The translations under genes and the position numbers were made by a program. A DNA stretch of 64,000 bases. Origin: an uncultured Actinomycetota bacterium. GTDB lineage: Bacteria > Actinomycetota > Acidimicrobiia > Acidimicrobiales > Bog-793. Position 1 is the first letter of the stretch; the number at the start of each line of letters is the position of its first letter. The stretch spans positions 1,453 to 65,452 of the forward strand of contig CAVXWO010000003.1 in NCBI GenBank assembly GCA_963765505.1, written 5' to 3'. This document shows, in pieces, positions 5,560 to 50,069 of the stretch. The notes below the pieces were generated by a model, which was not told the DNA's origin, made no database searches, and saw only the letters and a list, made by a program, of their open reading frames with translations.

Positions 5560-6682
5560 GTGCTCCCGCGCGTAAGTCATTGTGACTTACGCGACCTGTA
5601 GCGGGCGGCCGTCGTAGGTCCATCGGAACGGCGCCGCTCGTCGGTTGTAGTCCTTGATGAAGGTGATGACCCGCTCGGCCAGCTCGTCGATCGAGGCGAA
5701 CTCGCCTCGTCGCAACAGCCTGCGCTCCAAGATCGAGAAGAACAGCTCCACCTGGTTCAGCCAGCTCGCGTGGGTGGGCGTGTAATGGATGTGCACGTGG
5801 GGATGCCCGGCCAAGAAGGTGGCGACCGCGTCGGTCTTGTGGGCCGAGAGGTTGTCGGCGATGCAGTGCAGGTCGAGTCCCGCAGGCGTGAGCCGCACGA
5901 GATCGGCGAGGAAGTCGACGAAGTTCTCCGACCTCGTCGAGTCGGTGACCCATCCGGCAACCCCGCCGTCATGGACGTCGAGGGCGGCGAATAACACGGC
6001 GGTTCCGTTGCGCTTGTACTCGAACTCCCGGCGCACGGGGGTGCCCGGGATAGCCGGCCTGGTGGGGTTGACGCGCGACTTCGCCTGCATGCCCGACTTC
6101 TCGTCGACGCTCCAGACCACGGCGTTGGTCGGGGGATCGAGGTAGAGCCCGCAGACGTCGGAGGCCTTCTCCCAGAAGTTGGGATCGTGGCTCGTCATCC
6201 AGCTCTCGACCTGCCAGGGCTTCAAGTCGAGCGCCCGGCAGATGCGCCAGGCCTGGGACGCCGACATCGCCACGCCGTGGGCCGCCATCGCGCCAGCGAG
6301 GGCCTCCATCGTCCAGCGCGAGGCGTTGTCCGGCGGCGGCTCCGTCACGAGCTTCACCAGCAACAGCACGTCGTCATGGCCATAGACGTGGGGTCGTCCC
6401 GGGCGTTCCTCGTCCTCGAGACCGGCCAAGCCCAGCTCGCTGTAGCGCTTCCGCCAGATGCCCACCTGGTTGTAGTGCATGTCGACCGTGTCGGCGATGT
6501 CCCGGTTCGACCAGCCGTCGGCCGCCAACAAGACGATGCGCGCCCGCTTGGCGGTGCGCGCCTCGACCGTCCCCGACCGCGTGATGGCCTCCAGGCGCGA
6601 CCGATCACCACGCCGGAGCTTCAAGGGCTCGAGTCTCATGGCTCCAGCAAAGCACATCACTGTCATTAACGCGAGGATGCAC
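5560..6682 (-). mobile_element. IS630-family insertion sequence (1123 bp)
   Basis: Imperfect ~26-bp terminal inverted repeats: GTGCTCCCGCGCGTAAGTCATTGTGA at the left, and GTGCATCCTCGCGTTAATGACAGTGA as the reverse complement of the right end. TA directly flanks both ends (5558-5559 and 6683-6684), the IS630/Tc1-type target duplication. Confidence 0.85.
5587..6666 (-). CDS. IS630-family DDE transposase
   Basis: N-terminal HTH (NRDIADTVDMHYNQVGIWRKRY), then WSVDEKSGMQA, CIADNLSAHKT and THASWLNQVELFF. A single intact ORF fills the element. Confidence 0.9.
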   Translation of the reverse strand: MTVMCFAGAMRLEPLKLRRGDRSRLEAITRSGTVEARTAKRARIVLLAADGWSNRDIADTVDMHYNQVGIWRKRYSELGLAGLEDEERPGRPHVYGHDDVLLLVKLVTEPPPDNASRWTMEALAGAMAAHGVAMSASQAWRICRALDLKPWQVESWMTSHDPNFWEKASDVCGLYLDPPTNAVVWSVDEKSGMQAKSRVNPTRPAIPGTPVRREFEYKRNGTAVLFAALDVHDGGVAGWVTDSTRSENFVDFLADLVRLTPAGLDLHCIADNLSAHKTDAVATFLAGHPHVHIHYTPTHASWLNQVELFFSILERRLLRRGEFASIDELAERVITFIKDYNRRAAPFRWTYDGRPLQVA

Positions 6683-9665: not shown

Positions 9666-10553
9666 TCAGCTCTGGAGATCCCCGACCGAGGACGCCAGGC
9701 GCTCGAGCTCGTCGCGCCAGTCCGCAGGTGACTCGAGCGGCCGAAGGACGAACTTCGAGAAGCCGACGGCGATGAAGCGCTCGAGCAGCTCGCGAAGGGC
9801 CGGGAGGCCGACCGGGACGAGCTCCTCCACCGGGCGGCCCTTGGACCGGGCGCGCAACGCGTCGCGGACCCGGTCGTCCAGGCGTTGTCGGGCGTAGCCG
9901 ATGCTCACCCCGAAGTGCTCGGGACTGATCTGCCGCCCGGCCTCCTCGGCGGCCCCGTCGACGACCTTGCGGCCTTCGGCAACCTCCTCCGGGGTGCACA
10001 TCGCGGGGAGCCAGCCGTCGGCCAGCCGTCCGCACCGCCTGAGCGCCGCTGGCGCGGTGCCGCCGAGCCACGCCTCGAGCGGCCGCTGGACGGGGAGCGG
10101 TGAGATGGTCGCGTCCTCGAAGCTCCCCGCCGGCCCGTGGTAGCTCACCTGCTCGCCGGCCCACAGCCGGCGGAGCACCGGGAGGGCCTCGTCGATCGCA
10201 ATCCCTCGCTGGTCGGGGGGTACGCCGACCGCGGTGCGCTCGGCTCCTCGGGGCAGTCCGGGAACGAAGGTCAGCAGGAGCCGCCCGTTTGAGAGCGAGT
10301 CGAGCACCGCGGTCTGCTTCGCCAGACGCACGAGGTTGCGTCCCGGCAGCAGCATCGTGGTGCCGAGCTTCAGCCCGGGATTGTGCGAACCGGCCCACGC
10401 CAGACCGACGAGCGGATCGACGTTTGGCGCGGTGAGCACCTCGGGCAGCCACAGCGAGTCGAAGCCCAGCTCGATGAGGTCGTCGCCCAACGACTCGAGT
10501 CGCGGTGCGTCCATCGTTGCCGCGCCGGTTCCGATCCCGATCCTGACCTTCAT
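9666..10553 (-). CDS. LLM-class (luciferase-like) F420-dependent oxidoreductase
   Basis: Starts MKVRIGIG, with FDSLWLPE, LGTTMLLPG, SNGRLLL and ADGWLP. The ATG at 10553 was verified in sequence. The 121-codon N-terminal extension in the track looks spurious. Confidence 0.85.
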   Translation of the reverse strand: MKVRIGIGTGAATMDAPRLESLGDDLIELGFDSLWLPEVLTAPNVDPLVGLAWAGSHNPGLKLGTTMLLPGRNLVRLAKQTAVLDSLSNGRLLLTFVPGLPRGAERTAVGVPPDQRGIAIDEALPVLRRLWAGEQVSYHGPAGSFEDATISPLPVQRPLEAWLGGTAPAALRRCGRLADGWLPAMCTPEEVAEGRKVVDGAAEEAGRQISPEHFGVSIGYARQRLDDRVRDALRARSKGRPVEELVPVGLPALRELLERFIAVGFSKFVLRPLESPADWRDELERLASSVGDLQS

Positions 10554-10859
10554 CGGCCGTCTCCCCGCTGCCGTCGATGGACGAGCCGGTCGCCGTCGCT
10601 CGCGCCTGGCGACAACCCGGAACGCGGCGTAGGCGCGCCCTGGGGCCCTCGACCGTCCTCGACCCACGGCTAGACGATGCAGGCGCACGTTCCCGGTGCC
10701 ACGGTACCGGCCGGGACCGCCGCATGGTCCTGGTCGCGCCGCGCGCCGAGGTCCGACGACCGTCGCCGGTTCGTCTCGGCCACGCTCCGAGCCGGAAGGT
10801 GTCGCGTCGGGGCGCGGCGAGCAACCGGTCGCGCAAGCCTCAGGCCGTCCCGATCGGGC

Positions 10860-10958
10860 CTCCAGGCCCAGCACAGCAGCGAGCCGTAGGGTCACGCCCG
10901 TGGCGGCGAGGAGCACCGGGGCCGCTGCGGCAAGCCCCCTCCGGTGCTCCTCGCCGCC
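10860..10958 (+). repeat. 99-bp intergenic repeat, copy A, with a perfect 18-bp hairpin
   Basis: 81/99 ungapped identity to 12036-12134. The stem is GGCGGCGAGGAGCACCGG (10902-10919) paired with CCGGTGCTCCTCGCCGCC (10941-10958), with a 21-nt loop. Confidence 0.7.
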
Positions 10959-11075
10959 AGGTCCCGGGCCGGCGTCGCATGTCCCGGATCCGGCCGGGCC
11001 TTAAGGCGCTGACCTGGCGAGTCGTCAGTACCGGCAGCACCGCACGCGTCCCGCGAGGGCGAGCGCCAGGCCCGC

Positions 11076-14399: not shown

Positions 14400-15185
14400 C
14401 TATCTCCAGCAGTCGCTCCCGGTGGTCCCGGGCGCGGCTCGTCCTCGGTCCAGGATGGCGCGGCCGTGCAGCGCTCGGCGGTGAACCCGCCACCGGGCTC
14501 CTCCGGAGTGTCCGCGGGACGCCGCCGTCACGCCGACGTGACGCCGCTCGCACCGGCCAGTCGGCCGCGAAGCACCTCCGCTCCCCGTGCCGCCGAGCCC
14601 GTCGGCGGCGACCCGGCGCCCGGTCATGGCGAGGAGCAGCGACATCGCGGGGCCCGAGACCTCGGGGCCGGAACCGTGGGACCAGTCGGCGTCGGTCGCC
14701 ACGAGCCGCAGGCCGTCGATCCGCTTCTTCGATCCGAGCGGGAAGTTCGCTCCCTTGTACAGGTCGAGGCAGGCGAGCGTGGCGTCGGCGGGGGTCGTCC
14801 CCTGCAGGCCGAGCGCCTCGCGGATGTCCTCGCCGTGGATGACCACCTCGCCGAGCACCGTCACGACGGTCGCCGGTGGGCGGTTGGTCGTGGTGGTGCG
14901 GGCACGCAACCGCTCCACGATCTCGCCGGTACTGAGCGCCCCGAGGCGACGCGCGTCTCGGTCCATCATCGTGTTGAAGCGGAAGCCGTTCGCAGCCATG
15001 CCGCTGAAGAAGCCGAGCACCGTCTGCTCCGCACCGGCCACGACGTGCGCCGCGGCGAGCTTCACCGTCCATCCTGCGCACAGGGACGGGCTGGACCACT
15101 GCTCCGGCGAGAGTCCCGCCAGCGTGTCCGCCAGTGCGTTCCGCTCCGAATGGATCATCTGCCACGTCTTGACGTTGTCGGGCAT
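14400..15185 (-). CDS. mycothiol-type maleylpyruvate isomerase family / DinB-like protein (3' end uncertain)
   Basis: N-terminus HSERNALADTLAGLSPEQWSSPSLCAGWTVKLAAAHV. ATG at 15185. After a C4 run (14583-14586) an alternative frame gives a family-like end (AEVLRGRL...) with a stop at 14528. Confidence 0.75.
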   Translation of the reverse strand: MPDNVKTWQMIHSERNALADTLAGLSPEQWSSPSLCAGWTVKLAAAHVVAGAEQTVLGFFSGMAANGFRFNTMMDRDARRLGALSTGEIVERLRARTTTTNRPPATVVTVLGEVVIHGEDIREALGLQGTTPADATLACLDLYKGANFPLGSKKRIDGLRLVATDADWSHGSGPEVSGPAMSLLLAMTGRRVAADGLGGTGSGGASRPTGRCERRHVGVTAASRGHSGGARWRVHRRALHGRAILDRGRAAPGTTGSDCWR

Positions 15186-29187: not shown

Positions 29188-30786
29188 GTGGGGGTGAGTG
29201 TGGACGCACCGTACGTGCCTGCGCGCGGCTACGACGAGCTGGTCGAGGCCGACGGCCGGCCGCGCAAGGTGGCCGGGCCGATGTGGGGGCACCTCATGCG
29301 GCTCGGGCCCGACGCGATGACGGACCGCCAGCGCGCGGCCGAGCGCGAGATCCGCTCGGTCGGGGTGACCTTCCGCACCGGCGGCGACGATTCCTCCGCG
29401 GACCGGCCGTGGCCCTTCGACGTCATCCCGAGGGTGATCGGCTCGGAGGAGTGGGCACGCATCGCCGACGGCCTGGTCCAGCGGCTGCAGGCGCTCAACC
29501 GCTTCGTCGACGACGTCTACCACGACCAGCGCATCGTGAAGTCCGGCGTCGTGCCCTCCGACCTCGTGGTGGGCTCGCCGAACTTCCGCCCCGAATGCAT
29601 GGGGGCGGACCCACCCGGCGGCGTGTGGGCGCACATCTGCGGGAGCGACCTGATCCGCGACGAGGACGGCACCCTCTACGTGCTGGAGGACAACCTGCGC
29701 GTCCCCTCCGGCGTCTCGTACGTGCTCGAGAACCGCCTGATCGCGAAGCGCATCTTCCCCGAGCTGTTCCGCTCCTACAGCGTCGAGCCCGTCGACCAGT
29801 ACGTGGGTCGCCTCGCCGCGCTCCTCGCGTCGGTCGCGCCGGTCGACCGGGACCCGCGGATCGTCGTGCTCACGCCCGGCCCGTTCAACGCCGCCTACTA
29901 CGAGCACACCTTCCTCGCCCAGCAGCTCGGCGTCGACCTGGTCGAAGGACGCGACCTGACGGTCCTCGACGACGACACGCTCTACGTGCGCACCATCGAC
30001 GGGCTCGAGCGCGTCGACGTCATCTACCGGCGCGTCGACGACCTCTTCCTCGACCCGGAGGTCTTCCGGGGCGACTCCATGATCGGCGTGCCGGGGCTGA
30101 TGCGGGCGTGGCGGTCGGGGAACGTGGCGCTCGTGAACGCCCCGGGGACCGGCGTCGCCGACGACAAGGCCGTCTACCCCTTCGTGGCGGACATGATCCG
30201 CTTCTACCTCGACCAGGAGCCGATCCTGCCGACCGTCACCACCTGGCGCTGCGCCGACTCCGACCACCGGACCTACGTGCTCGCGCACCTCGATGAACTC
30301 GTGGTGAAGCCCTCGAACGAGTCGGGCGGCTACGGCATCGTGATCGGGCCGAAGGCCGGCGACGAGGCCCTGCTCCACGTGGCCCGGCGCATCGAGCGGT
30401 ACCCGCCGGGCTGGGTCGCGCAGCCCTGCCTGAACCTCTCGACGATGCCGACCCTCGCCGACGGCAAGGTGGTGTCGCGCCACGTCGACCTGCGGCCGTT
30501 CACGCTGCTCGGCCCGGAAGGCGCCTACGTCACCCCCGGCGGGCTCACCCGGGTGGCGCGCCAGGAGGGCTCGCTCATCGTGAACTCCTCCCAGGGTGGC
30601 GGCAGCAAGGACACGTGGGTGGTGAGCGGCGCCGTGACCGATCCGGTCTTCCCCGACGTCGCTCCCGCCACGGGCGCCGTCCTCGGGCGGGTGTCGCCGG
30701 CCGAGCCGGCGAACAGGGTTTCGGACCCGGGACCGGACGGCGGGGGCGCGCAGGAGGCGCGCCGGGCCGAGCCGGCGCAGCAGTGA
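29188..30786 (+). CDS. circularly permuted ATP-grasp protein (CP_ATPgrasp_2 / DUF404-DUF407 type)
   Basis: 532 aa. The N-terminus YDELVEADGRPRKV, then GVTFR, LYVLEDNLRVPSGVSYVLENR, LVVKPSNESGGYGI and SSQGGGSKDTWV are typical of this family. Confidence 0.9.
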   Translation: MGVSVDAPYVPARGYDELVEADGRPRKVAGPMWGHLMRLGPDAMTDRQRAAEREIRSVGVTFRTGGDDSSADRPWPFDVIPRVIGSEEWARIADGLVQRLQALNRFVDDVYHDQRIVKSGVVPSDLVVGSPNFRPECMGADPPGGVWAHICGSDLIRDEDGTLYVLEDNLRVPSGVSYVLENRLIAKRIFPELFRSYSVEPVDQYVGRLAALLASVAPVDRDPRIVVLTPGPFNAAYYEHTFLAQQLGVDLVEGRDLTVLDDDTLYVRTIDGLERVDVIYRRVDDLFLDPEVFRGDSMIGVPGLMRAWRSGNVALVNAPGTGVADDKAVYPFVADMIRFYLDQEPILPTVTTWRCADSDHRTYVLAHLDELVVKPSNESGGYGIVIGPKAGDEALLHVARRIERYPPGWVAQPCLNLSTMPTLADGKVVSRHVDLRPFTLLGPEGAYVTPGGLTRVARQEGSLIVNSSQGGGSKDTWVVSGAVTDPVFPDVAPATGAVLGRVSPAEPANRVSDPGPDGGGAQEARRAEPAQQ

Positions 30787-30850
30787 GGGACGCGATGTGG
30801 GACGGGACGTGGGACGCGAGCTGGCACGGACACGCGCAGCGGGACAGGAG

Positions 30851-32827
30851 ATGACGAACATGCTGCTCGCCCGGACGGCGGAGTCGGTCTACTGGGCCGG
30901 GCGCTACCTGGAGCGCGCCGAGGACATGGCCCGGATCGTGCTCGTCCACGGCGACACCCATGTCGACCTCCCCGTCGGGGAGGACATCGGTTGGGCGCCC
31001 CTGCTGGAGATCGCCGGCGTCGAGCACGCCTACGCGCAGCGCCACTGGGGCTCGCGCCTCACCGCCGAGGGCCAGCGGGGCGACATCCCGGCCCGCGAGG
31101 CCGAGGTGGTCGAGTTCCTCCTCTTCGAGGACGACAATCCGTCCGCCGTGCTCGCCTCGGTGTCGGGGGCGCGCGAGGCATTGCGGCTGGCCCGGCCTGC
31201 GGTGCCGCGCGAGGCGTGGGAGCTGTGCAACGACCTGTGGCTGGCGCTCGGGGAGCAGCGCGCCGAGCTGCGGACGCGCGACGCCCGGGTGCGGCTGCTG
31301 CGCCGCGTCATCGCCGACTGCCAGCGGGTGAACGGAGCGCTGTGGGGCGTCATGCGCCGCGACGCGGCGATGGCGTTCATGCGCATCGGGCAGTACCTGG
31401 AGCGTGTCGACCTGACCTGCCGGCTGCTCGCGGTCCGAGCCGACGACGCGGTGGTGGAGGGGCGGGACGACCCCTACGACGAGATCCGCTCCATGGGGGT
31501 GCTGCGCTCCCTCGCCGCCTACCAGCCCTTCCGCCGCGCGATGCCGACCCGGCCGGGCGAGGGGTCGACGCTCGAGTTCCTGCTGCGCGACGAGGCGTTC
31601 CCGAGGGCGGCGGCCTCGTGCCTCAGCGAGCTGCGCGGCTACCTGAAGGAGCTCCCCTGCAACGAGGAGCCGCTCGAGGCGTGCACCGACGCCGCGGTGC
31701 GCCTCGCCGGCACGCCGGTCGGCCAGCTCTCGGCGCTGCAGCTGCGGCGGTTCGTCGTCGAGCTGCAGCCCATGCTGGCGACCATCCACGATCGGCTCGC
31801 GTCCACGTACTTTCATGGTGCACCGATGGAGCGGGCGGCCGGACAGGAGCAGCGGTCGGCGCCACAGGTGCGCCGGCGCTCGCTGGCTGCCGTGCGGCCC
31901 GATGCCGCTGACGTCGCCCTGTCCGGTCGCCGGTACGAGGTGACTCACCGCACGACCTACCGCTACCAGGCCCCGGCCGAGCTGTCCCACGTCGAGGCGC
32001 ACCTGCGTCCTCGCGACATGGCGCGCCAGCAGTGCCTGAGCCACGAGCTCGACGTCGAGCCGGAGCCGTCGACCTGGTCGGAGCAGGCCGACCTGTTCGG
32101 CAACCGCGTCACCAAGCTCATCGTCCGCGGCCACTTCGACGTCCTCTCCGTCACCTCGACGAGCGAGGTCGCCGTCGCCCCGGCTCCCGAGCCACCCGAG
32201 GGGCCGCCGTGGGAGTCGGTCCGCACGCTGCTCGAGCGGGACCGCCAGCCCGAGACCCGTGACGCCCGCCGCTACCGGGCGGCGTCGCGGCTCGTCCCGA
32301 CCTCCTCGGTGCTCTCGGAGTACGCGCAGGAGTCGTTCGCCCCGGGGCGGCCGTTCGTCGAGGCCGTGGTGGAGCTGTCGACGCGCATCAACCGCGACTT
32401 CAAGTACGAGCCGGGCTTCACCTCCGTCACGACGCCGCTGCTCGAAGTGTTCGAGGCGCGGCGCGGGGTGTGCCAGGACTTCGCCCATCTCGCGGTGGCG
32501 TCGCTTCGCGCCGTCGGGCTCGCGGCACGCTACGTGAGCGGCTACATCGAGACCATCCCGCCGCCGGGGGGCGAGCGGATGACCGGGGCGGACGCGTCGC
32601 ACGCATGGGCGTCGGCGTACCTGCCGGGATGGGGCTGGCTCGACGTCGATCCCACGAACGACCAGCTCGTCTCCGACTCGCACGTGACGACGGCTTGGGG
32701 ACGGGACTACTGGGACGTGTCGCCGCTGCGGGGCACGGTGGAGGGCGGGGGTGCGTCGCACACCCTCGAGGTCGCGGTGGACGTGGTGCGCCTCGGGTCC
32801 GGGAGAGCCGGCGTCGAGGGCTCTTGA
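30851..32827 (+). CDS. alpha-E domain protein fused in frame to a transglutaminase-like protein (Bact_transglu_N + core)
   Basis: The N-half starts LLARTAESVYWAGRYLERAEDMARIV (alpha-E/DUF403). The C-half has YEVTHRTTYRY, GVCQDFAHLAVASLRAVGLAARYVSGY, HAWASAY and WLDVDPTN (Cys-His-Asp core). ATG at 30851 follows AGGAG. Confidence 0.85.
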   Translation: MTNMLLARTAESVYWAGRYLERAEDMARIVLVHGDTHVDLPVGEDIGWAPLLEIAGVEHAYAQRHWGSRLTAEGQRGDIPAREAEVVEFLLFEDDNPSAVLASVSGAREALRLARPAVPREAWELCNDLWLALGEQRAELRTRDARVRLLRRVIADCQRVNGALWGVMRRDAAMAFMRIGQYLERVDLTCRLLAVRADDAVVEGRDDPYDEIRSMGVLRSLAAYQPFRRAMPTRPGEGSTLEFLLRDEAFPRAAASCLSELRGYLKELPCNEEPLEACTDAAVRLAGTPVGQLSALQLRRFVVELQPMLATIHDRLASTYFHGAPMERAAGQEQRSAPQVRRRSLAAVRPDAADVALSGRRYEVTHRTTYRYQAPAELSHVEAHLRPRDMARQQCLSHELDVEPEPSTWSEQADLFGNRVTKLIVRGHFDVLSVTSTSEVAVAPAPEPPEGPPWESVRTLLERDRQPETRDARRYRAASRLVPTSSVLSEYAQESFAPGRPFVEAVVELSTRINRDFKYEPGFTSVTTPLLEVFEARRGVCQDFAHLAVASLRAVGLAARYVSGYIETIPPPGGERMTGADASHAWASAYLPGWGWLDVDPTNDQLVSDSHVTTAWGRDYWDVSPLRGTVEGGGASHTLEVAVDVVRLGSGRAGVEGS

Positions 32828-39233: not shown

Positions 39234-42070
39234 TCACCACTCGACGAGCGTCCACACCTCCGGCCGTGGTTCGGCGCCGGCGTCCACCGCGGCGAAGAGG
39301 CTGGCGGCCGACTTCAGGTGGTCCATGGCGCCGTCCTCGTCGCCAGTCGCATGCAGCAGGTCGGCGAGGTTCGTGTGGAGGGCGGCCATCCGGTGCCGGT
39401 CGCCGTGCGAGGTGCCGAGGGCGAGGGCCTCGCGTGAGGCGTCGAGCGCCCCGCCGGTGCGGCCGGCCTCGGCGAGGACGCGCGACAGGTTGTTCAGCGC
39501 GGCGACGGCGGCGGCGGGGTCGGTGAGCAGGCGCGCCTCGCCCAGGCTGGCGCGCAGATGCTCCTCTCCCGAGGCCAGGTCGCCCGCGGCCGCGGCGAGC
39601 ATGCCCGCGACGTCGAGCGCCTGCGCGAGCGCCGCCGGGTCGCCGCAACCCGTCGCCTCGTCGAGGGCGCGGGCCGCCAGGGCGTCGGCCTCGCTCCCTC
39701 CCCGGCGGTACGCGACGAGGGCGCGGTCCGCCTGGATCCGGGCCCGCAGGACGGGGTCCGGGCCGGCGAGCTCCAGCGCCGACAGCAGGTGCGCGTCGGC
39801 CAGCGCCCAGTCGCCGAGCCAGTGGTGGATCTCGGCGAGCCGGTGCTCGATCGCCGCGAGCTCGGGGTCGGCGGGATCGCGCGCGCGGCGGCATGCTCGA
39901 GCTCGACCCGGGCCTCCTCGTAGCGCCCGAGCGCGATGAGGACGTCGCCGATCGCGGCGCGTGCCTCGGACGGCGGGTGGCCGAGCTCGAGCGCCGAGCG
40001 GAGGTGGGTCAGGGCCTCGGCGTGGGCGAACAGCCCTCGCGCCCGCACGGCGGCGCGCCACGACCACGCCGCGGCCTCGTCCGCGCGGCCGGCCGCCGCG
40101 AAGTGGCCGGCGACCACGCTCGGCGGTGCCGCGGAAGGGTCCCGGTCGTACCGGCGGGCGAGCGCCTCGGCGGCGCGGCCGTGGAGGAGGCGCCGGCGTG
40201 CCCGGCTCGTGTCCTCGTAGACGACCCGGCGGAGGGCGTCGTAGGGGAAGGCGTAGGTCGGGTCGTCGCCGGCCGAGGCGGCCGCGTGCTCCTCCAGCAG
40301 CCCGCGGCGCAGCGCCTCGTCGAGCGCGTCGGTGGCCTCGTCCTCATCGCGCCCGCTCGTCGTCCGCAGCAGGTCGGCGTCGAACCTTCCGCCGAGGACC
40401 GAGGCTGCGGCGAGCGCCTGCGCGGCGGTCTCCGAGACGCCGGCGACCCGGGTGCGGAGCAGCTCGCGGACGCTCGCCGGCAGCGGCCAGACCCCGTCGC
40501 CCGCCCCGGCATCTGCCGACCGGAGCGCGTCGACGTAGGCCGTGAGCAGGAGCGGCAGGCCCCGGGTCTCGTCGACCAGCCGCCCGACGTCGATCCCCGA
40601 GCCCGCCAGGCCCGCCGCGTCGAGCAGCGTCGCCGCCTCCTCGGCGCCGAGGGGCGCGGGCGGGCGAGCTGGGCGTCCCCGCTCCGCTGGGCGGCGTCCA
40701 GCGCGGCGCGCAGCCCCTCCGGCGGCCCAGAGTCGCGTTCCCAGGTGAGCACCGCCAGGAGCGGCAGCTCGGCGAGCCGCCGGACGAGGAAGGCCAACAG
40801 CTGCGCCGAGGCGTCGTCGGCCCAGTGGACGTCGTCGACCACGACGGCGCCGGTGGTGCCGGGAGCGCTGAGCGCGCTGGCGAGGGCGTCGCCGACCGCG
40901 TGGTAGAGGCGGGCCTGCGCGCCCGGCGTGTCGAGCGGTTGGGGCGCGGGCAGATCGGGGCGGCCGGCCGCGAGCACCGGCACGAGGCGCGACAGCTCGA
41001 CGAGGTCGTGCCGGCGCGACCCGCTCGGCGAGATCGGGGCGGAGGGCCGCCGCGCTGCGCAGCAGCTCGGTGACGAGCCCGAGCGCGAGGCCCGCCTCGC
41101 CCTAATGGCACCGCACCGCGATGACCGGCGCACCGTCCTCGGCCAGCCGGCGCGCCAGCTCCTCGACGACCCGGCTCTTCCCCGCGCCGGCATCGCCGGC
41201 CACGCCCACCAACCGGCCGCCGCGGCCCACCTGGCGCCAGGCGTCCAGCAACAGGGCGAGGACGGGCTCCTGGCCGAGCAGCGGCGGACGCTCGACGACG
41301 GGCAGCCCGCTGCGTCGCTCGGGACGGCGCGCCGGCTGCTCGGGGGGCGCCCCGAGCCGGTCGGCGCGCACGTCCTCGTAGAGGGCCGTCGTCGTGGCGA
41401 GGGGCGCGACGCCGAGCTCGCGCTCGAGCACGCGCACGCACGACCGGTACTGCGCGAGCGCCGCGGACCGCTGTCCCGTCCAGGCGTAGCAGCGGACGAG
41501 CGCCTGGTGGGCCGGTTCGTTGAGAGGATCGAGCGTCAGCCAGCGCCGCGCCGCGCCGAGCGCCTCCTCGAAGGCGGCGGCGTTCGCCCGCTCCTCGACG
41601 AGCCGGCCCAGCACCGCGCCGAGCCGCGCCCGGAGATGCTCGGCCATCGAGCGCTGCCAGTCGTCGAACTCCGGGCTGTCCCGGAGCGAGAAGCCGGCGA
41701 GGAAGTCGTCGCGGTAGAGCGAGGCGGCGCCTTCGAGCGAGCTCGGGTCGGCCGCGGCGGCGAGCCGCTCGAAGTCCCACACGTCGCAGGCCGTGCTGGC
41801 GAGGTCGAGCGAGGCACCCTCGCGCGTGACGACCAGCGCGTCGCCGACCGCGGCGTGGGTGACCGAGAGGGTCCTGCGGAGCGAGGACCGTGCGCGCGCC
41901 TCGCCGGACTCCGGCCAGAAGAGCGCAGTGAGGTGCTCGCGGCTGTGCTCCCGCCGGCTCACCGCGAGCAGCGCCAGCAACGCGATCGCCTTGCGGGTGT
42001 CGAAGGTCGCCCGCGTGCCCCCTCGCTCGATGACCGGTGCGCCGAGCAGCGCGAGGCGGAGTTGGGCCAT
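39234..42070 (-). pseudogene. SARP/AfsR-like regulator (wHTH-BTAD + AAA ATPase + TPR), multiply disrupted
   Basis: MAQLRLALLGAPVIERGG (ATG at 42070), a BTAD region, and Walker A GDAGAGKS. An in-frame TAG at 41102-41104 interrupts RCH*GEAGLALG. The frame then changes near 41015, at 40651-40654 (G4) and near 39880. The TPR tail is ORF 39234-40067. Confidence 0.8.
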
Positions 42071-42435
42071 CAGGAAGCCGTAACGCGCGTGCGAGAAGAA
42101 AAGTTGCTCACCGGAGGTAACCGTAACGTTCCCGGAACGGCCCGTCCGTAGCATCATCGCCAGATCGACCCCTGGACGACCAGACGACCAGACGACCAGG
42201 GTAGGAGGCGAAACATGCGCAGCAAGGCGAGCGACAAGTTCTGGCAGCAGACGCTCACGGCGCTCGGCAGGCATCTCGGCGTCGAGCGCCCGGAGGTCGA
42301 GCGTCGCGTCGTCTGCGTCGACGCGCACCGCCAGTGGCGCAACTGGCGGAACCTCTGGTACAACGCGGCGGCGCGCAGCCTCGGCCAGACGCTGTCGTCG
42401 CCAATCGGCGGCAGCCGCCGGCGGGCGGCCCGCCG

Positions 42436-43969: not shown

Positions 43970-44790
43970 ATGAGCGCGTTCAGGGACCTGGCGGGCAAGG
44001 TGGCCGTCGTGACCGGCGGGGCGTCGGGGATCGGCAAGGGGATCGCCACCCGCCTCGTCGAGGCGGGCGCGCACGTCGTGCTGGCCGACGTGGAGGAGCA
44101 TGCCCTCCAGGCGAGCGCGTCCGAGCTCGGCGCCGTCGGGATCCGCACCGACGTGAGCGACCTCTCGAGCGTCCAGGCGCTGGCCGACGCCACGCTGGCG
44201 CGGTTCGGAAAAGTGCATGTGGTCTGTAACAATGCCGGCGTCGGCCCGTTCGCCAAGATCGCCGACCTCACGATGGACGACTGGCAGTGGATGCTCGGCG
44301 TGAACCTCTGGGGCGTCGTCCACGGCGTGCACGTCTTCCTGCCGCTCCTGCTCGACAACGCCGAGGGCGGTCACATCGTGAACACCGCCTCGGCCGCCGG
44401 CCTCGTCAGCGTGCCGGAGCTCGGCGCCTACTGCGTCACGAAGTTCGGCGTCGTGGCGCTCACCGAGACCCTCGCCGCCGAGCTCGCCGCCGACGGCGCC
44501 AGGGTGGGCGCGACCGTGTTGTGCCCGGGGTTCATCCGGACGAGCATCAACCGCAGCACGCGCAACCGGCCGGTGGCGCTCGCCGGCGGCGGGCTCGCCG
44601 ACGTCGACCTCCAGGTCCGGGACGTGCGCTCGACGTGGATGGAGCCGGAGCAGGTCGGCACGCTCGTCGTCGAGGCGATCACCGCGGCGACCTGTACGTG
44701 ATGACCCACCCCGACATGCTCGAGCGGGTGGAGCGCCGCCACGAGGGGATCGTCGAGGCCTTCCGCCGCGCCGACGCCACGGTGCCCTAG
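43970..44790 (+). pseudogene. SDR-family oxidoreductase with a frame break near the 3' end
   Basis: Contains TGGASGIGKG, NNAG and YCVTK. The track ORF stops at 44701. The family-like tail DLYVMTHPDMLERVERRHEGIVEAF continues in another frame from about 44686 to a stop at 44790. Confidence 0.8.
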
Positions 44791-44862: not shown

Positions 44863-45645
44863 TCAGAAGCCGGGAAAGACGCGCCGGAGCGTGTCGAGGT
44901 CCACGCCGCGCGCGCTCGTCCCTGCCGGGGTGTGGCCCGGGTCGAGCCGGCCGTAGACGAGGCGAAGCAACGCCGCCGAGGTGATCTCGAGCTCGCCGTC
45001 GGCCGCCGCCTCGGTGCCCGAGACGTCGGTGAGGGACACGGCGTCACCGACGGCGAGGAGCAGGTCGCGCCCGGGTCGCGTTGTCCGGACCCGCACCCGG
45101 AGCTCGCCGCCGAACGGCTTTCCGAGCCGCGGGACGACTTGGTCGACGGCACCGGCGAGCAGGTCCACGGCGTCGGGCGCGAGCTCGGCCGCGGGGTCGC
45201 GGGTGACGGCGACGTCCCAGCTGTGCATGGTGTGCTCGAAGAGCCGCATGCGACTGAGCGAAGCGATGTCGAGGTCCATGCCGAACATCGCGAAGCGCAG
45301 GCCGGCGAGCTGCCCGTCGTCGAGGCCCTCGAGCAGCTCGACGAGGGCGCGATCGGCCCGCTTGGCGTCGGTTGCCTGCTCGTCTGGGGACTTCGCGTTC
45401 CACGAGTCCCAGATCGGCGGGAACGCCTCCCTGCCCGGCGGCTCCCCGCCGCTCGTGGCGGCGTCGAGGAAGAGCGAGAAGATCTCGGCACCGCTGCCGA
45501 GGTGGGAGAGCACTTGGGCGACGCTCCACTCCGAGCAGTAGGAGGGTCCCGAGATCGCCGCGGGGTCGAGGCGGTCGACGACCGCCCAGAGCCGGTCGTG
45601 GGAGCGGCGAACCGCTTCGATTATGGTCCGAGGCTCGCTCATCAT
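44863..45645 (-). CDS. mycothiol-type maleylpyruvate isomerase family / DinB-like protein
   Basis: N-terminus AVRRSHDRLWAVVDRLDPAAISGPSYCSEWSVAQVLSHLG. Intact 260-aa ORF. Confidence 0.85.
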   Translation of the reverse strand: MMSEPRTIIEAVRRSHDRLWAVVDRLDPAAISGPSYCSEWSVAQVLSHLGSGAEIFSLFLDAATSGGEPPGREAFPPIWDSWNAKSPDEQATDAKRADRALVELLEGLDDGQLAGLRFAMFGMDLDIASLSRMRLFEHTMHSWDVAVTRDPAAELAPDAVDLLAGAVDQVVPRLGKPFGGELRVRVRTTRPGRDLLLAVGDAVSLTDVSGTEAAADGELEITSAALLRLVYGRLDPGHTPAGTSARGVDLDTLRRVFPGF

Positions 45646-45705
45646 GGCTCCTTCGACTCAGCAGGCGATCCTGGGGGTGCGAGCCGGATCATCGCGGCTC
45701 GGGCG

Positions 45706-46593
45706 CTACCTGACGTCGACCAGCACCGTCGCGGCCCTGGCGATCGCGGCGATGTGGTCGTCGACGCTCTCGAAGCCCGAGCCCATCGTGTTGATGCTCA
45801 CGTGGCTCGCGCCGAGGGTCTGCCACGCCGCGTTCTCCTGGCCGATGGCGTCGAGGTCGCCGGCGCCGTAGGCGATCCGGCCTTGCATGCCGATCGCGCG
45901 GGGGTCGCGGCCCGCCCCGGCGGCGGCCTCGCCGATGATCGCGAGGGCCGCGTCGAGGTCGGAGCCGGGCGTCATCAGCGGGAACCACCCGTCCGCCAGC
46001 CTCCCGATGCGGCGGTAGGCGGGCGCCGATCGGCCGCCGAACCACACCGGGATCGGTCGCTGGACGGGCAGTGGCGCGATGCCGGCGCCGGTGACGTGCT
46101 CGAAGTCGCCGTGGTAGGTCACACTCTCCTCGCTCCACAGCCTGCGGAGCAGCTCGACCTGCTCGACGAGGCGGACGCCCCGGTTCGAGAAGTCCTTCCC
46201 GAGCGCCTCGTACTCGACCGCGTTCCAGCCGATCCCGACACCGAGGCGGAAGCGTCCCCCGGTGAGCAGGTCGACCTCGGCCGCCTGCTTTGCGACGAGC
46301 ACGGTCTGGCGCTGCGGCAGGATGACGATCCCAGTGACGAGCTCGAGCGACGTGATGCCGGCGAGGTAGCCGAAGAGCACCAACGGCTCGTGGAAGGTCG
46401 TGTGGACGTCGTACGCCCCGGACCAGTCCTGGTGGACGACGGGATCGGCGCCCACGACGTGGTCGTAGGCGAGGAGGTGGACGTAGCCGAGCTCCCAGCT
46501 CGCCTGGGCGTAGGCCCTGACGGCGCCGGGGTCGTCGCCGATCTCGGTCTGGGGGAAGATCACTCCGGGCTGCACGGCGTCCCTTCCTAGCAC
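45706..46593 (-). CDS. LLM-class F420-dependent oxidoreductase (TIGR03619-like)
   Basis: Contains VIFPQTEIG, ILPQRQTVLVAKQAAEVDLLTGGRFRLGVGIGW and ADGWFP. Confidence 0.9.
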   Translation of the reverse strand: MLGRDAVQPGVIFPQTEIGDDPGAVRAYAQASWELGYVHLLAYDHVVGADPVVHQDWSGAYDVHTTFHEPLVLFGYLAGITSLELVTGIVILPQRQTVLVAKQAAEVDLLTGGRFRLGVGIGWNAVEYEALGKDFSNRGVRLVEQVELLRRLWSEESVTYHGDFEHVTGAGIAPLPVQRPIPVWFGGRSAPAYRRIGRLADGWFPLMTPGSDLDAALAIIGEAAAGAGRDPRAIGMQGRIAYGAGDLDAIGQENAAWQTLGASHVSINTMGSGFESVDDHIAAIARAATVLVDVR

Positions 46594-46648
46594 GGCCCGG
46601 CCGGCGGCCCGAGGTCCGGCCCGCCGCCCGGCGGGAGCCCTGCCCGGG

Positions 46649-47521
46649 TCAGCGCAGACCGGCGAACAGGTCGTCCTCGGGCGTCGGGGCGCCGGTCCGG
46701 TCGAGATGCCGGACGAAGTACTCGCGCGCGAAGAACTGGGCGAACAGCTCGCGGCCGAGCTTCAGGAAGAAGGTGTCCGTCGTCTGGCTGCGGTGGGCCG
46801 CCAGGGCCTCGTACTTGCGCTCGACCACCGCCGAGCAGTCGATCGCGGCGCCGATCAGCTCGTCGGCGACCCCGAACTCCACCTCGTCGGTCTCCCCGGG
46901 GGGATCGATGCCGCCGGCGCGCAGCATCGCGGTGAAGGCGGGGATGGCGGACTTCGGGATCGCGGGGAAGTAGAGCTTCTGCGCGATGCCGGTCGCCGCG
47001 GCGGCGGCGATGGTGATGCGGTGCGCCTGGATGTGGTCGGGGTGGCCGTAGAAGCCGTTCGCGTCGTACGTGACGACCACCTCGGGGCGGTAGCGCTCCA
47101 TCAGCGCGATCAGCGGGCGCGCCGCCTCGGCGACCGGGATCTGCCAGAAGGCCTCGGGGGCGTCGTTGTGCCTCCAGCCCATCATCCCCGAGTCGTGGTA
47201 CCCGAGGAGCTCGAGGTCGCTCACGCCGAGGATGGCGCAGCTCTCCCGCAGCTCGCGAAGGCGTGTCGCCACGACGTGCTCCTCGTCGTGGTCGGGCTCG
47301 TCCGGCTTCTCGCCTTCGGGGGCGTCCCCGAGCTCGCCGTTCGTGCAGGTGACGACGACGGTCCGCATGCCCTCGTCGGCGTAGCGGGCGAGGATGCCAC
47401 CGGTCGAGGAGGCCTCGTCGTCGGGGTGCGCGTGCACCGCCATCAGTGTCGGCCGGTGGGTGCCCCCCACCGACGGGCCGTCAGCCACCGGCGACCGAGG
47501 CCAGGATGTGGACGACGGCAC
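46649..47521 (-). CDS. PIG-L (LmbE/MshB/Mca-like) family deacetylase
   Basis: Contains MAVHAHPDDE, HPDH and DLELLGYHDSGM. An alternative GTG start at 47488 overlaps the stop of the upstream carrier gene by 8 nt (GGTGGCTGA). Confidence 0.85.
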   Translation of the reverse strand: MPSSTSWPRSPVADGPSVGGTHRPTLMAVHAHPDDEASSTGGILARYADEGMRTVVVTCTNGELGDAPEGEKPDEPDHDEEHVVATRLRELRESCAILGVSDLELLGYHDSGMMGWRHNDAPEAFWQIPVAEAARPLIALMERYRPEVVVTYDANGFYGHPDHIQAHRITIAAAAATGIAQKLYFPAIPKSAIPAFTAMLRAGGIDPPGETDEVEFGVADELIGAAIDCSAVVERKYEALAAHRSQTTDTFFLKLGRELFAQFFAREYFVRHLDRTGAPTPEDDLFAGLR

Positions 47522-47762
47522 CGTCCGCCACCGGCGTCGCGAGGCCGCTGGCGTGGCGGATGTCCGAGCCGTCGACGTAGACGTTCACGTACCGGCGCAC
47601 CGTGCCAGTCTCGTCCAAGAGCCGCCGCTGCAGTGCCGGGTGCGCGGCGCCCAGCCGGAAGAGCACGTCGCCGACGGTCCCGTCCGACGGCACGTCCACG
47701 TCGACACGGCGCGCGCCGCCGGCGAGCTGTTGGAGCGCGCCGGGGAGGAGGACGGCGACCAC
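47481..47762 (-). CDS. CysO-like ThiS/MoaD-family small carrier protein ending in Gly-Gly
   Basis: The 93-aa version starts at GTG 47762 (the track ORF extends to 47813). The C-terminal half RRYVNVYVDGSDIRHASGLATPVADGAVVHILASVAGG closely resembles the mycobacterial CysO tail (..FVNIYVN..DVR...GLAT...DGD.V.ILPAVAGG) as I recall it. Confidence 0.8.
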   Translation of the reverse strand: MVAVLLPGALQQLAGGARRVDVDVPSDGTVGDVLFRLGAAHPALQRRLLDETGTVRRYVNVYVDGSDIRHASGLATPVADGAVVHILASVAGG

Positions 47763-47778
47763 GAGCAGCTCGCCCGGG

Positions 47779-48864
47779 TCACCCGAGCTCGGCGGCGCGG
47801 ACCGTGAGCACATCGGGAAGGTGGGCGGCGACCAGCGCGAAGGAGTCGCCCTCGTCGCGGCTCACGTAGACGCAGCCGTCGCGTGTGCCGAGGTAGACGC
47901 CGGTGGGCTCGGCGTCGTCGACGGTCGCGGCGTCGCGCAGCACCGAGACCCAGCACCGGTCGGGCAGCCCCGACCCGACCTCGTTCCAGCTGCCGCCGGC
48001 GTCGTTCGTCCGGTAGCACCGGAGCCGGCCGCCCGGCGGCACGCGCTCGCTGTCCGCGGTGAGCGGCACCACCCAGGCGATGCCCGGGGTGCTCGGGTGC
48101 GCCATCACGGTGAAGCCGAAGTTGCTCGGCAGCCCGTCCTCGATCGGCATCCAGGTCCTGCCGGCGTCGTCCGAGCGGTAGACGCCATGGTGGTTCTGCG
48201 CGTACAGGCACCCGATGCCGGTGGCGTCGGCGGCGATCTTGTGGACGCACTGGCCGAACTCGGGATGGGGGTTCGGCAAGAAGTAGGCCGAGATGCCGTG
48301 GTTGGAGGCGCGCCACGACGTTCCGCCGTCGTCGCTCGCGTAGACGCCCCCGGTGCTCATGGCGACCCGGAGGCGCTCGGAGTCCGGGTCGGCCAGCACC
48401 GAGTGCACCGCCGCGCCGCCGTAGCCCGGCGCCCACTCGCTCCGGTGCGGGTGGTCCCACAGGCCGCGCACGAGCGAGAAGGACTCGCCGCCGTCCTCGC
48501 TGCGCCACAGCGACGTCGGCTCGCACCCGGCCCAGACGACGTCGGGACGCCTGGCGGCGTCCGGCTGCAGCTGCCAGACCCGGGCCAGGGCGGCGCCGGT
48601 GTCGGCGGGGAAGCGGATCGCACCCTCGTCGCGCTCGTGCCACGAGTCGCCGAGGTCGTCGGACCACATCACCGTCGGGCCCCAGTGCTCGCTGCGCACC
48701 CCGACGAGGAGGCGGGGCTGCGCCCGGCGCGTGTCGATGGCGATCGCCGGGACCTCCCGCATCAGGAAGTGGGGGCCCTCGAGCGACCACGTGCGGCGGT
48801 CGTCGTCGCTGCGCGCAAACCACAGGCCCTTGCGGGTGCCGATCGCCAGCAGCAGGGAAGCCAT
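47779..48864 (-). CDS. Asp-box (BNR) repeat beta-propeller protein
   Basis: Six Asp-boxes: SDDLGDSW, SEDGGESF, SDDGGTSW, SDDAGRTW, TNDAGGSW and SRDEGDSF. ATG at 48864 is preceded by GGAGGAG. No signal peptide is evident. Confidence 0.8.
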   Translation of the reverse strand: MASLLLAIGTRKGLWFARSDDDRRTWSLEGPHFLMREVPAIAIDTRRAQPRLLVGVRSEHWGPTVMWSDDLGDSWHERDEGAIRFPADTGAALARVWQLQPDAARRPDVVWAGCEPTSLWRSEDGGESFSLVRGLWDHPHRSEWAPGYGGAAVHSVLADPDSERLRVAMSTGGVYASDDGGTSWRASNHGISAYFLPNPHPEFGQCVHKIAADATGIGCLYAQNHHGVYRSDDAGRTWMPIEDGLPSNFGFTVMAHPSTPGIAWVVPLTADSERVPPGGRLRCYRTNDAGGSWNEVGSGLPDRCWVSVLRDAATVDDAEPTGVYLGTRDGCVYVSRDEGDSFALVAAHLPDVLTVRAAELG

Positions 48865-49826
48865 CGCCGCTCCTCCGTGTCTGGTCCGCGCCGGACCGTA
48901 GCGAGAGGGTGCCGTTCGCCCGCCCGGCATGATAGGTGAGGACCGCGTCGGTGGCTCTCCGACGCCGCGAGCCCGGGCCAGGCCGTGACCGGCTCGGTGG
49001 ACCGACCGCCGCCGGCTGCGTCCCCGCTCAGCCCGTCCAGAGACCGGACGCGGTCGCGGAACGGCGCGGTGCACGGTGGCCCGTCGGCGACCTCCACGAC
49101 CGGGAGCGCGCGCGGGTCGCTCGGCACGGTGACGAGCTCCGCCGACCTCGTGCCGTACTGCGGGGTGTGGACACAGCAGGCGGCGAGCTCGGGCGGCCCG
49201 AGCTGGATCGGCGCGTCCGGCCCGCGCGCTTCCGCAGGCGCGTCAGGCGCCGGGACGGTGTGGTCGGCGAGCAGGGCGCGGAGCAAGGAGGCGAGCTCGG
49301 CGCCGTCCATCCCCGCGGCGCCACCGGCCAGCTGTCGCACGTGGGTCACCTTGGCCGAGGGCGCGCCGAGCGGGCGGTTCTCGAGCACGTGGATGCCCGC
49401 GGGGAGCTCCGTGACGAGCGGCGCCGCCGTCGCGGTCATGTCCATCGAGTACAGCGAGGCGCGGTCGCCGACGAGCAGCCAGCACGGGTTGTAGTCGCCC
49501 GGACGGAGCCGTGACGCGACGTCCTCCACGGCTGCCCGGGCGTCGCGGTGCGCGGCGAGCGCCAGGGGCAGCTCGCCGCGCGACCGCTTGGACGGGTCCC
49601 GACCGGCCGGGGAGGGCCGGTTGGTCAGCCCGGCGACGACGCCGTGCTCGTTGACGGCCAGCCACGTCCCGCCGGCGAGCCCGTCCCGGCCGCCGAGGAT
49701 CCGGGGAGCCGCCGCGCGCAGCACGGCGATGCTCTGCGAGGGCCGCGAGTAGCGCTCGTCGCGGTTGGCCGCGACGACGAGCGGCGCTCCTCGCACGACC
49801 CGCGAGAGGACGACGAGGAGGCACAC
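48762..49826 (-). CDS. NRDE-family (TANGO2/DUF833-like) protein
   Basis: MCLLVVLSR...PLVVAANRDE at the N-terminus, with Cys2 as in Ntn-type folds, and GGTWLAVNEHG. The last ~35 codons overlap the next gene and may be read-through. Confidence 0.8.
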   Translation of the reverse strand: MCLLVVLSRVVRGAPLVVAANRDERYSRPSQSIAVLRAAAPRILGGRDGLAGGTWLAVNEHGVVAGLTNRPSPAGRDPSKRSRGELPLALAAHRDARAAVEDVASRLRPGDYNPCWLLVGDRASLYSMDMTATAAPLVTELPAGIHVLENRPLGAPSAKVTHVRQLAGGAAGMDGAELASLLRALLADHTVPAPDAPAEARGPDAPIQLGPPELAACCVHTPQYGTRSAELVTVPSDPRALPVVEVADGPPCTAPFRDRVRSLDGLSGDAAGGGRSTEPVTAWPGLAASESHRRGPHLSCRAGERHPLATVRRGPDTEERRWLPCCWRSAPARACGLRAATTTAARGRSRAPTS

Positions 49827-49862
49827 GCCCCGCGACGGTAGGCGGAGACGAGTGCGCCACGC

Positions 49863-50069
49863 TCAGTCGTCGCTGTCCTCCTCCTCGCGGGTGGCCGGCC
49901 TGGCCAGGAACGTCGGCTCGCGCGGGCTCGTCGGATCGACCGCCGCGAGCCGGGCGGCGCAGGCTCTGAGGAATGCACGGACCCGCGTCCACGCCGAACC
50001 CGCATGGCTCGGGCCGCCGGTCGCTGCGGTCCGCCCGTTCGCGCGCGGCTGCTCCTCTCCGTCGCTCAT
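49863..50069 (-). CDS. possible 68-aa protein with an acidic C-terminus, first gene of the NRDE operon
   Basis: ATG at 50069 is preceded by GGGAGGGG. GC3 is about 88%. It ends REEEDSDD and lies 36 nt upstream of the NRDE start. Confidence 0.4.
   Translation of the reverse strand: MSDGEEQPRANGRTAATGGPSHAGSAWTRVRAFLRACAARLAAVDPTSPREPTFLARPATREEEDSDD

Follow-up and report, generated by a model that had tools for sequence, protein, structure and literature searches.

What does a carrier protein that resembles CysO do when none of the partners of CysO is encoded beside it? The question is raised by a string of minus-strand genes in a 64,000-nucleotide stretch of DNA (hereafter, the window) from an uncultured actinobacterium (Acidimicrobiales, Bog-793; GenBank assembly GCA_963765505.1, contig CAVXWO010000003.1, positions 1,453–65,452), for which an initial annotation, made from the sequence alone, had reported a CysO-like protein with a Gly–Gly end among seven genes and no cysM, mec or activating enzyme (E1) nearby. 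Among the annotated open reading frames (ORFs) of the window, we likewise found no ThiF/E1, JAB/mec, PALP/cysM or moa gene (the annotation covers the window apart from approximately 1.9–5.6 kb and 22–26 kb, regions that contain no confident ORF). The best explanation of our data is that the functional unit is a two-gene module, composed of the carrier and of a β-propeller encoded directly upstream of it, and that the rest of the string consists of lineage-specific neighbours. The two genes are:

47481–47762, minus strand: ThiS/MoaD-family carrier, by sequence a CysO-like paralogue (93 aa, GTG start; PF02597, 3.7e-11)
47779–48864, minus strand: cytoplasmic Asp-box (BNR) propeller with seven blades, a member of the 3B7F/Reut_B4987 family (361 aa, starting at ATG)

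The carrier–propeller pair

The carrier gene begins with a GTG codon 16 nt past the propeller stop, and its product ends ...SVAGG-stop. A score of 43.8 bits on PF02597 (cut-off 22.5) makes the protein a member of the ThiS/MoaD β-grasp superfamily, in which the characterised proteins nearest to it are the sulfur carriers CysO, MoaD and SAMP1. Mycobacterium tuberculosis CysO was the best solved-structure match (3DWG_C; 5.7e-13, 52 bits), consistent with the CysO-like, VAGG-ended carrier first described, and was followed in the Protein Data Bank (PDB) by a Thermus MoaD-related protein, 4N6E_B (2e-9; which we take to be Amycolatopsis orientalis CysO, the CysO chain of the BexX–CysO complex) and SAMP1 (38 bits). 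Orthology with CysO was rejected, given that the carrier lies outside a tight CysO group and has no cysM or mec gene alongside—the CysO proteins of M. tuberculosis, A. orientalis and Nonomuraea gerenzanensis share 62–66% identity with one another, whereas the carriers linked to a propeller, one of them from an Amycolatopsis genome, are 33–42% identical to them. By sequence comparison, the carrier is a paralogue of CysO and not CysO itself. Both kinds of gene can be found in one organism: the 11.85-Mb record of N. gerenzanensis contains a DUF2017–JAB(mec)–cysO–cysM cluster at 2.586 Mb and, at 5.404 Mb, a propeller gene with a carrier gene beside it, and the megaplasmids of Ralstonia solanacearum have a CysO-like gene beside an M67 peptidase at a position apart from the propeller pair. 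As far as the point applies, the earlier view that the carrier is no ordinary CysO is therefore upheld, as is the view that it is no ordinary MoaD beside moa genes, an assignment that we rejected given that neither moaE nor any other moa gene was present among the annotated ORFs of the window. Of 68 free actinobacterial carriers, 65 have the Gly–Gly end, as do all three proteobacterial ones, and the motif is present in practically every fusion.

The propeller gene has an ATG start preceded by a GGAGGA ribosome-binding site. Profile comparison of its product with the PDB gave a match to 3B7F over residues 4–357 (E 2.6e-86; 39% identity), and an AlphaFold2 (AF2) model (predicted local distance difference test (pLDDT) 87, predicted template-modelling score 0.90) was matched to the same structure by Foldseek with a template-modelling (TM) score of 0.90. 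The secondary structure of the model comprises seven four-strand blades, with six canonical Asp-boxes and one degenerate one. A signal peptide is absent, the N terminus being a β-strand that is internal in the fusions described below. The cytoplasmic six-Asp-box propeller proposed at the outset thus stands as to its canonical boxes and its lack of a signal peptide, and has to be amended to a seven-bladed fold with a degenerate seventh box. The structure 3B7F is a structural-genomics entry for Reut_B4987/YP_299179.1 of Ralstonia eutropha JMP134, labelled ‘putative glycosyl hydrolase’, and has been classed as the seven-bladed ‘YP_299179.1 family’ with no function assigned (PMC2716378). Profile searches returned no Pfam or NCBIfam model for the propeller family. 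Two glycosidase assignments were rejected: exo-α-sialidase (GH33), given that sialidase chains matched with E values of 0.3–1, that the propeller has seven blades and not six and that it has no secretion signal; and GH74 xyloglucanase, given that the protein is a single 361-aa propeller with which GH74 chains align by one of their two domains.

The propeller is approximately 70% identical across actinobacterial families, and seven polar residues (K12, R141, H208, Q223, H225, R274 and R310) are invariant in 55 sequences that cover all gene configurations. Judging from strand order, blade 7 probably combines the C-terminal strand with the first three strands of the chain, and the topology would place the invariant residues, which fall in the B–C and D–A loops, on the top face; a review of Asp-box proteins regards this face as the functional side (PMC2716378). 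After 3B7F and GH74, the structural neighbours were sortilin, Ycf48 and DAIP (TM 0.35–0.6, identity 12–17%), all of which bind peptide tails (sortilin–neurotensin, Ycf48–D1 and DAIP–thermolysin). A separate protein, P0123 (704 aa), lacks transmembrane segments and joins an N-terminal Ser/Thr kinase domain to a complete propeller of the 3B7F type, a hint that the propeller can serve as a ligand- or protein-binding module in the cytoplasm.

Linkage of the two genes was surveyed at 80 loci obtained by a propeller-profile scan of many actinobacterial orders (one genome per species), in which neighbours were identified by tblastn with the window proteins. At 68 of the 80 loci, the propeller is followed directly, on the same strand, by a ThiS-like gene; these loci span Geodermatophilaceae, Arthrobacter, Rhodococcus, Micromonospora, Amycolatopsis, Kribbella, Lentzea and others. 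The survey thus retained the pair from the operon that the initial annotation had proposed, and not its remainder: the set of NRDE, PIG-L, LLM and DinB genes accompanies the propeller at a single locus (L001). The gene past the carrier is convergent at most loci, which indicates that the pair forms the end of its own transcription unit.

No third conserved partner emerged from BLAST clustering of neighbours at the 80 actinobacterial loci and at 83 loci of a fusion clade (see below) or from Pfam tallies (129 nearest neighbours at 34 representative loci); what recurs is lineage synteny, in which gatB, an LppZ-like GSDH gene, a 2-hydroxyacid dehydrogenase gene, the pair and ilvD/ilvB follow one another in Kribbella, a Dermatophilaceae metagenome-assembled genome (MAG), Terrabacter and related loci. 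Recurring neighbours in the fusion clade are an alpha/beta hydrolase, a sigma-70 factor, WS/DGAT and DUF899. A D-2-hydroxyacid dehydrogenase gene (product of approximately 319 aa) stands directly upstream of the propeller, on the same strand and inside the gatB...ilvD/ilvB block, at 12 loci (L020, L028, L051, L054, L055, L059, L060, L062, L064, L066, L067 and L069); this adjacency could be a functional link or conserved synteny alone. A connection with xanthine-dehydrogenase (XDH)/CODH maturation or molybdenum cofactor (Moco) sulfuration had been prompted by the fusion loci L087 (3272–7977) and L088 (1793–5787), where XDH-family genes, XdhC, MocA-like, CoxE and CoxG genes are found, and was dropped as chance, given that XDH/Moco genes were detected by tblastn near the pair in just 3 of approximately 90 loci; MOSC domains account for 2 of the 129 nearest neighbours. 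An anti-phage ubiquitin-like system was also considered and set aside, given that PADLOC gave no meaningful match.

The pair extends beyond Actinomycetota. Searches of annotated plasmids and megaplasmids with tblastn detected propeller homologues in Betaproteobacteria (32–38% identity), and in Mitsuaria sp. 7, R. solanacearum and Cupriavidus metallidurans CH34 a ‘MoaD/ThiS family protein’ ending in SGG is encoded directly upstream of an ‘exo-alpha-sialidase’, which is the reverse of the actinobacterial gene order. An exhaustive propeller-profile search gave approximately 1,540 clusters at 50% identity (E ≤ 1e-30), and among its top matches with N-terminal extensions were two ThiS–propeller fusions, P0146 and P0161, along with the kinase fusion P0123. 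When P0161 was used as the query, all of the best 120 clusters combined a ThiS domain with a propeller (441–485 aa), and their source labels were Actinomycetota and Thermoanaerobaculia MAGs. The range of the pair takes in Actinomycetota, Betaproteobacteria and, judging by MAG labels, Acidobacteriota.

The fusion-clade set comprised 83 loci (80 from a metagenome scan and three fusion loci fetched earlier). Carrier and propeller are fused in one reading frame in at least 55 of these and are split in 14, where the carrier ends at a GG-stop and the propeller starts 4–10 nt later. At the split loci (L112, L124, L128, L147, L152 and others), the Ser-Gly-Gly codons (TCN GGA GGN, containing GGAGG) together with the stop codon constitute the Shine–Dalgarno sequence of the propeller. 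The motif x-I/V-S-G-G is invariant in the fusions and is followed by a linker of 4 to approximately 25 residues before the first propeller strand. Adjacency in two gene orders, fusion and splitting at the Gly–Gly motif, retention of that motif and strong conservation of the propeller together argue that the carrier and the propeller work together physically.

Proposed role and competing explanations

We tentatively favour a role as a dedicated carrier–acceptor pair, comparable to MoaD–MoaE, with an E1 encoded elsewhere and a substrate that is probably anionic. In the mechanism that we infer, a housekeeping MoeZ/MoeB-type E1 from elsewhere would adenylate the C-terminal Gly of the carrier, which would then be converted to a thiocarboxylate; the flexible ...VAGG tail would dock in a conserved basic pocket of the top face, lined by the invariant residues K12 to R310 listed above; and sulfur would pass from the carrier to an anionic small molecule, possibly a sugar phosphate or keto acid. 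The propeller would be the dedicated acceptor enzyme, taking for its own carrier the role that MoaE, ThiG or CysM takes elsewhere. That no E1 is linked to the pair is no anomaly, given that MoeZR, encoded elsewhere, sulfurates both MoaD and CysO in mycobacteria (PMC3227635). Carrier–acceptor fusions are known for ThiS–ThiG and MoaD–MoaE (PMC1779556), and MoaX needs cleavage after Gly–Gly for activity (PMC4326299); the fused polypeptides described here would probably be cleaved at the same point.

A more specific reading, which we regard as possible and hold with less confidence, is that 3B7F-type propellers constitute an unrecognised family of sulfur-insertion enzymes that occurs in several phyla and would thiolate a primary metabolite or cofactor precursor, with a ThiS-like thiocarboxylate of its own as sulfur source and a top-face pocket of Lys, Arg and His residues. 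One candidate substrate would be a keto-sugar phosphate, and the propeller would then be the counterpart of ThiG or BexX.

Several observations weigh against such a carrier–acceptor role. No E1, JAB, rhodanese or cysteine desulfurase gene was linked to the pair in approximately 170 loci (nor was an E1 or JAB gene found near the fusions at the fusion-clade loci), and the neighbourhoods of the pair gave no recurring clue to a substrate. For 12 of the 80 actinobacterial propellers, no ThiS-like ORF was found within 10 kb, a search by hidden Markov models included. The carrier adjoining the propeller of N. gerenzanensis (L172 6084–6395, NZ_LT559118.1) ends ...YVLPALA-stop, with no Gly–Gly, and the propeller beside it keeps every invariant residue. 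The AF2 model of a natural fusion has a pLDDT below 50 at residues 83–93 and leaves the GG tail unplaced. C114 and C206 are invariant in Actinomycetota and not conserved in Proteobacteria, and were rejected as persulfide sites on that ground. Finally, the kinase fusion P0123 suggests a sensor or binding role for the propeller rather than a catalytic one.

An alternative that we consider unlikely is that the carrier is a ubiquitin-like modifier similar to SAMP1, TtuB or Urm1, activated by an E1 and then attached to target proteins at their lysines, the propeller being its receptor, reader or main target (for example, through K12); such a role could coexist with sulfur transfer. The window carrier scores above the cut-off of the SAMP1 equivalog model NF041918 (66.7 bits, cut-off 60), and the Prokaryotic Genome Annotation Pipeline (PGAP) names its relatives ‘ubiquitin-like small modifier protein 1’; the name is not justified by gene context, the proteobacterial carriers fall below the cut-off (36–40 bits), and among PDB matches the carrier scores higher on CysO (52 bits) than on SAMP1 (38 bits). 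Conservation of the Gly–Gly end, peptide binding by the structural neighbours of the propeller, an invariant Lys in a top-face loop and the fit of P0123 with a binding module all suit a modifier and its reader. Against this, an E1, E2 or JAB gene is linked to the pair at none of the loci surveyed, one-to-one carrier–partner pairs and fusions are typical of sulfur transfer (PMC1779556), and a receptor would be unlikely to keep approximately 70% identity over its full length.

Somewhat less probable still is a non-covalent complex, in which the β-grasp protein would be a structural or regulatory subunit, like TmoB of toluene monooxygenase, with no chemistry at its C terminus, and the propeller would itself be the enzyme or sensor. 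The many fusions with an internal GG, some with a linker of just four residues, would suit such a subunit, as would the twelve propellers without a nearby carrier, the Nonomuraea carrier and the missing linkage to an E1 or protease. The non-sulfur β-grasp relatives TmoB, RnfH and YukD are not known to have a Gly–Gly motif. Here, by contrast, approximately 1 of 155 carriers examined has lost GG, and the fusions retain it throughout, which is unexpected for an inert tail, and the stop codon of the split genes falls exactly after GG. The modifier and the non-covalent subunit both retain some probability because of the propellers that have no carrier, the Nonomuraea carrier that has no GG, the kinase fusion and the absence of a linked E1 or protease.

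The seven-gene string and its surroundings

The third alternative is the pathway of the initial annotation, in which the carrier thiocarboxylate, the NRDE and PIG-L proteins, the F420-dependent LLM oxidoreductase and the DinB protein would together make or process a sulfur-containing sugar or low-molecular-weight thiol. All seven ORFs are present on the minus strand and profile searches agreed with the families named for them; besides the pair, the string contains:

44863–45645, minus strand: protein of the DinB/MDMPI_N mycothiol-dependent-enzyme family (MDMPI_N, 1.3e-20; TIGR03083, 74.5 bits, cut-off 50)
45706–46593, minus strand: LLM oxidoreductase, F420_Rv2161c subfamily (TIGR03619, 258 bits, cut-off 167)
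46649–47488/47521, minus strand: PIG-L/LmbE-type deacetylase (PF02585, 5e-31)
49028–49826, minus strand: NRDE/TANGO2 protein with an M-C N terminus (PF05742, 1e-28; true length 265 aa)
49053, no strand: assembly indel, an extra C relative to two short-read assemblies, which shifts the NRDE frame
49863–50069, minus strand: small acidic ORF (68 aa, no family match)

The single strand speaks for a common pathway, as does the tight junction between carrier and PIG-L, where the carrier stop overlaps a candidate PIG-L GTG start by 8 nt (GGTGGCTGA), as first noted, or, with the start chosen by gene callers, a gap of approximately 10 nt remains. The arrangement is also kept in L001 and in three assemblies from the same organism, and further points in its favour are a PIG-L gene convergent to the pair in L073 and a DinB_2 gene adjoining a fusion in L088. 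Against it, the arrangement is missing from the other 79 of the 80 propeller loci, and L001, at 87.6% DNA identity to the window, is too close a relative to count as an independent observation. PIG-L is found near the pair at 2 of the 80 loci, which we estimate to be about the level expected by chance. Genes for LLM and MDMPI_N proteins each occur twice in the window (the second copies at 9669–11000 and approximately 14528–15184, both on the minus strand), and because these families are highly paralogous, their adjacency to the pair carries little weight. Spacing also departs from the initial description, in which no gap exceeded 60 nt: the junction between NRDE and propeller measures approximately 163 nt once an indel is removed. 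A single pathway joining the carrier to NRDE, PIG-L, F420 and mycothiol chemistry is accordingly improbable, and as a conserved system it is largely refuted. The last alternative, that the carrier is simply the genome's own CysO or MoaD for an unlinked cysM/mec or moaE and stands beside the propeller by coincidence, is suggested by the CysO match in the PDB and by the JGI label ‘molybdopterin converting factor small subunit’ of its relatives and is highly improbable in view of linkage across phyla and fusion, the low identity to CysO, the separate CysO genes of N. gerenzanensis and R. solanacearum and the absence of moa genes from the annotated window ORFs.

The string is delimited by a convergent SDR gene (43970–44701, plus strand) and a divergent gene for an AAA_16+GerE regulator, and in the window, which has 70–78% G+C, third-codon-position GC marks the run of minus-strand genes at 44.8–50.1 kb. 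Three other assemblies carry an identical propeller protein. Against L082 and L083, two short-read assemblies obtained independently from this organism, the sole differences were single-base indels that shift the frames of three genes—at 49053 (NRDE), at 50521 and 50907 (the LuxR-type AAA_16+GerE regulator, which is 875–926 aa in other assemblies and frameshifted in the window) and at 44683 (SDR)—and the window probably derives from an error-prone long-read assembly. The extra C near 49053 lies inside the 3' end of the NRDE gene, and with it the window ORF runs on to 48762; without it, the protein has 265 aa, is identical to the window ORF through residue 258 and ends near 49028, ahead of the propeller ATG by the spacer given above. 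The 354-aa NRDE ORF that overlaps the propeller is thus an artefact of this 1-nt insertion. The PF05742 match spans residues 1–237 of the NRDE protein, which begins M-C-L-L with Cys at position 2. For the PIG-L protein, identification as MshB or Mca was rejected, given that both equivalog scores are under their cut-offs (TIGR03445, 183 bits against 224; TIGR03446, 150 bits against 277), and from sequence the gene is apparently a paralogue of both. The 68-aa ORF, which had no family match in profile searches, is called as a gene in L081 and L082, and its core (...WTRV..FL.AC.ARL.AVDPTSPREPTFL...) is kept in L001; a homologue was found at none of the other propeller loci among the 80.

An Rfam search found no RNA element or riboswitch in the window, and the 163-nt spacer between NRDE and propeller folds no better than shuffled sequence. 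A promoter and terminator scan of the string found nothing, a result that is uninformative at 75% GC. Elsewhere in the window, and unrelated to the pair, a circularly permuted ATP-grasp protein (CP_ATPgrasp_2, 1.5e-160) is followed by an Alpha-E and transglutaminase fusion (29188–32827, plus strand), presumably a conserved predicted peptide-ligase or modification set. The left end of the window contains mobile elements: genes for an IS21-type transposase (Mu-transposase C-terminal domain, rve) and for an IstB ATPase at 46–1853 (plus strand), and for a DDE_3 (IS630-like) transposase at 5587–6666 (minus strand). Translation of 39234–42328 (minus strand) points to a putative SARP/AfsR-type regulator (winged-helix/BTAD, ATPase and TPR-like regions) spread over several frames, probably as a result of indels.

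Novelty and comparison with known systems

A full-text literature search returned no paper on a ThiS protein paired with a BNR/Asp-box propeller, and the pairing is not listed in the 2006 and 2007 comparative-genomic surveys of prokaryotic ubiquitin-like proteins by the Aravind group. The earlier remark that no function had been described holds for the carrier–propeller pair, for which we found none published; the seven genes are not conserved as a unit. Automatic annotation calls the propeller ‘exo-alpha-sialidase’ or ‘photosystem II stability/assembly factor-like’ and the carrier ‘MoaD/ThiS’, ‘molybdopterin converting factor small subunit’ or ‘ubiquitin-like small modifier protein 1’; no such label is grounded in evidence for the carrier or propeller family itself. 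Carriers, dedicated pairs and fusions were already known, and the novelty lies in the partner of the ThiS/MoaD carrier, which is of a new type. Carriers of this type flag sulfur-insertion or ubiquitin-like pathways, and few dedicated carrier–partner pairs are understood; the present pair is widespread and strongly conserved, has had a crystal structure since 2007 and has no protein family of its own. If sulfur insertion is correct, the pair would be the fourth or fifth dedicated carrier–synthase pair, beside ThiS–ThiG, MoaD–MoaE and CysO–CysM. Identification of the substrate might bring to light a thiolated metabolite or cofactor that is new, or else a bacterial ubiquitin-like system. Culturable hosts (Rhodococcus, Arthrobacter, C. 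metallidurans CH34 and R. solanacearum) make it testable.

In MoaD–MoaE, ThiS–ThiG and CysO–CysM, the thiocarboxylated tail of the carrier enters the active site of the partner. The arrangement described here resembles MoaD–MoaE and MoaX of M. tuberculosis in that a Gly–Gly β-grasp carrier is encoded beside, or fused N-terminally to, a dedicated partner (PMC4326299; PMC1779556) and in that the E1 is encoded elsewhere (for our pair, by inference); it differs in that the partner is a seven-bladed Asp-box propeller and not a MoaE fold, and in that no moa genes are nearby. With CysO–CysM–Mec of M. tuberculosis (Rv1334–1336), it shares a carrier that is approximately 41% identical to CysO and has the same VAGG end, and activation in trans by MoeZR would be the expected route for our carrier as well; unlike CysO, the pair has no adjoining pyridoxal-phosphate-dependent cysteine synthase or JAB protease, and its carriers fall outside the CysO group. 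The nearest solved propeller, 3B7F, belongs to the same family, and its homologue in Cupriavidus CH34 has a ThiS-like gene immediately upstream; the gene order is reversed in the actinobacterial branch, and the ThiS neighbour is not mentioned in the account of this structure (PMC2716378).

SAMP1, TtuB and Urm1 are sulfur carriers that double as protein modifiers, and they have the same β-grasp fold and Gly–Gly end; the pair differs in its bacterial host and in having neither a UbaA or TtuC E1 nor a partner of the TtuA type in its vicinity, and the similarity is known from sequence. The Vps10 domain of sortilin, Ycf48 and DAIP are likewise single Asp-box propellers, and their solved complexes bind peptide tails, but these proteins are extracytoplasmic or thylakoid-associated and have no β-grasp partner. 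A further precedent is the 2-thiosugar synthase BexX of A. orientalis, which, as reportedly found by Sasaki et al. (2014, Nature), uses carriers borrowed from primary metabolism: the carrier thiocarboxylate and a Lys-dependent enzyme are said to thiolate a sugar phosphate, and several carriers to depend on a single unlinked MoeZ. BexX is a ThiG-like TIM barrel without a carrier of its own, whereas the system described here combines a dedicated carrier with a propeller fold.

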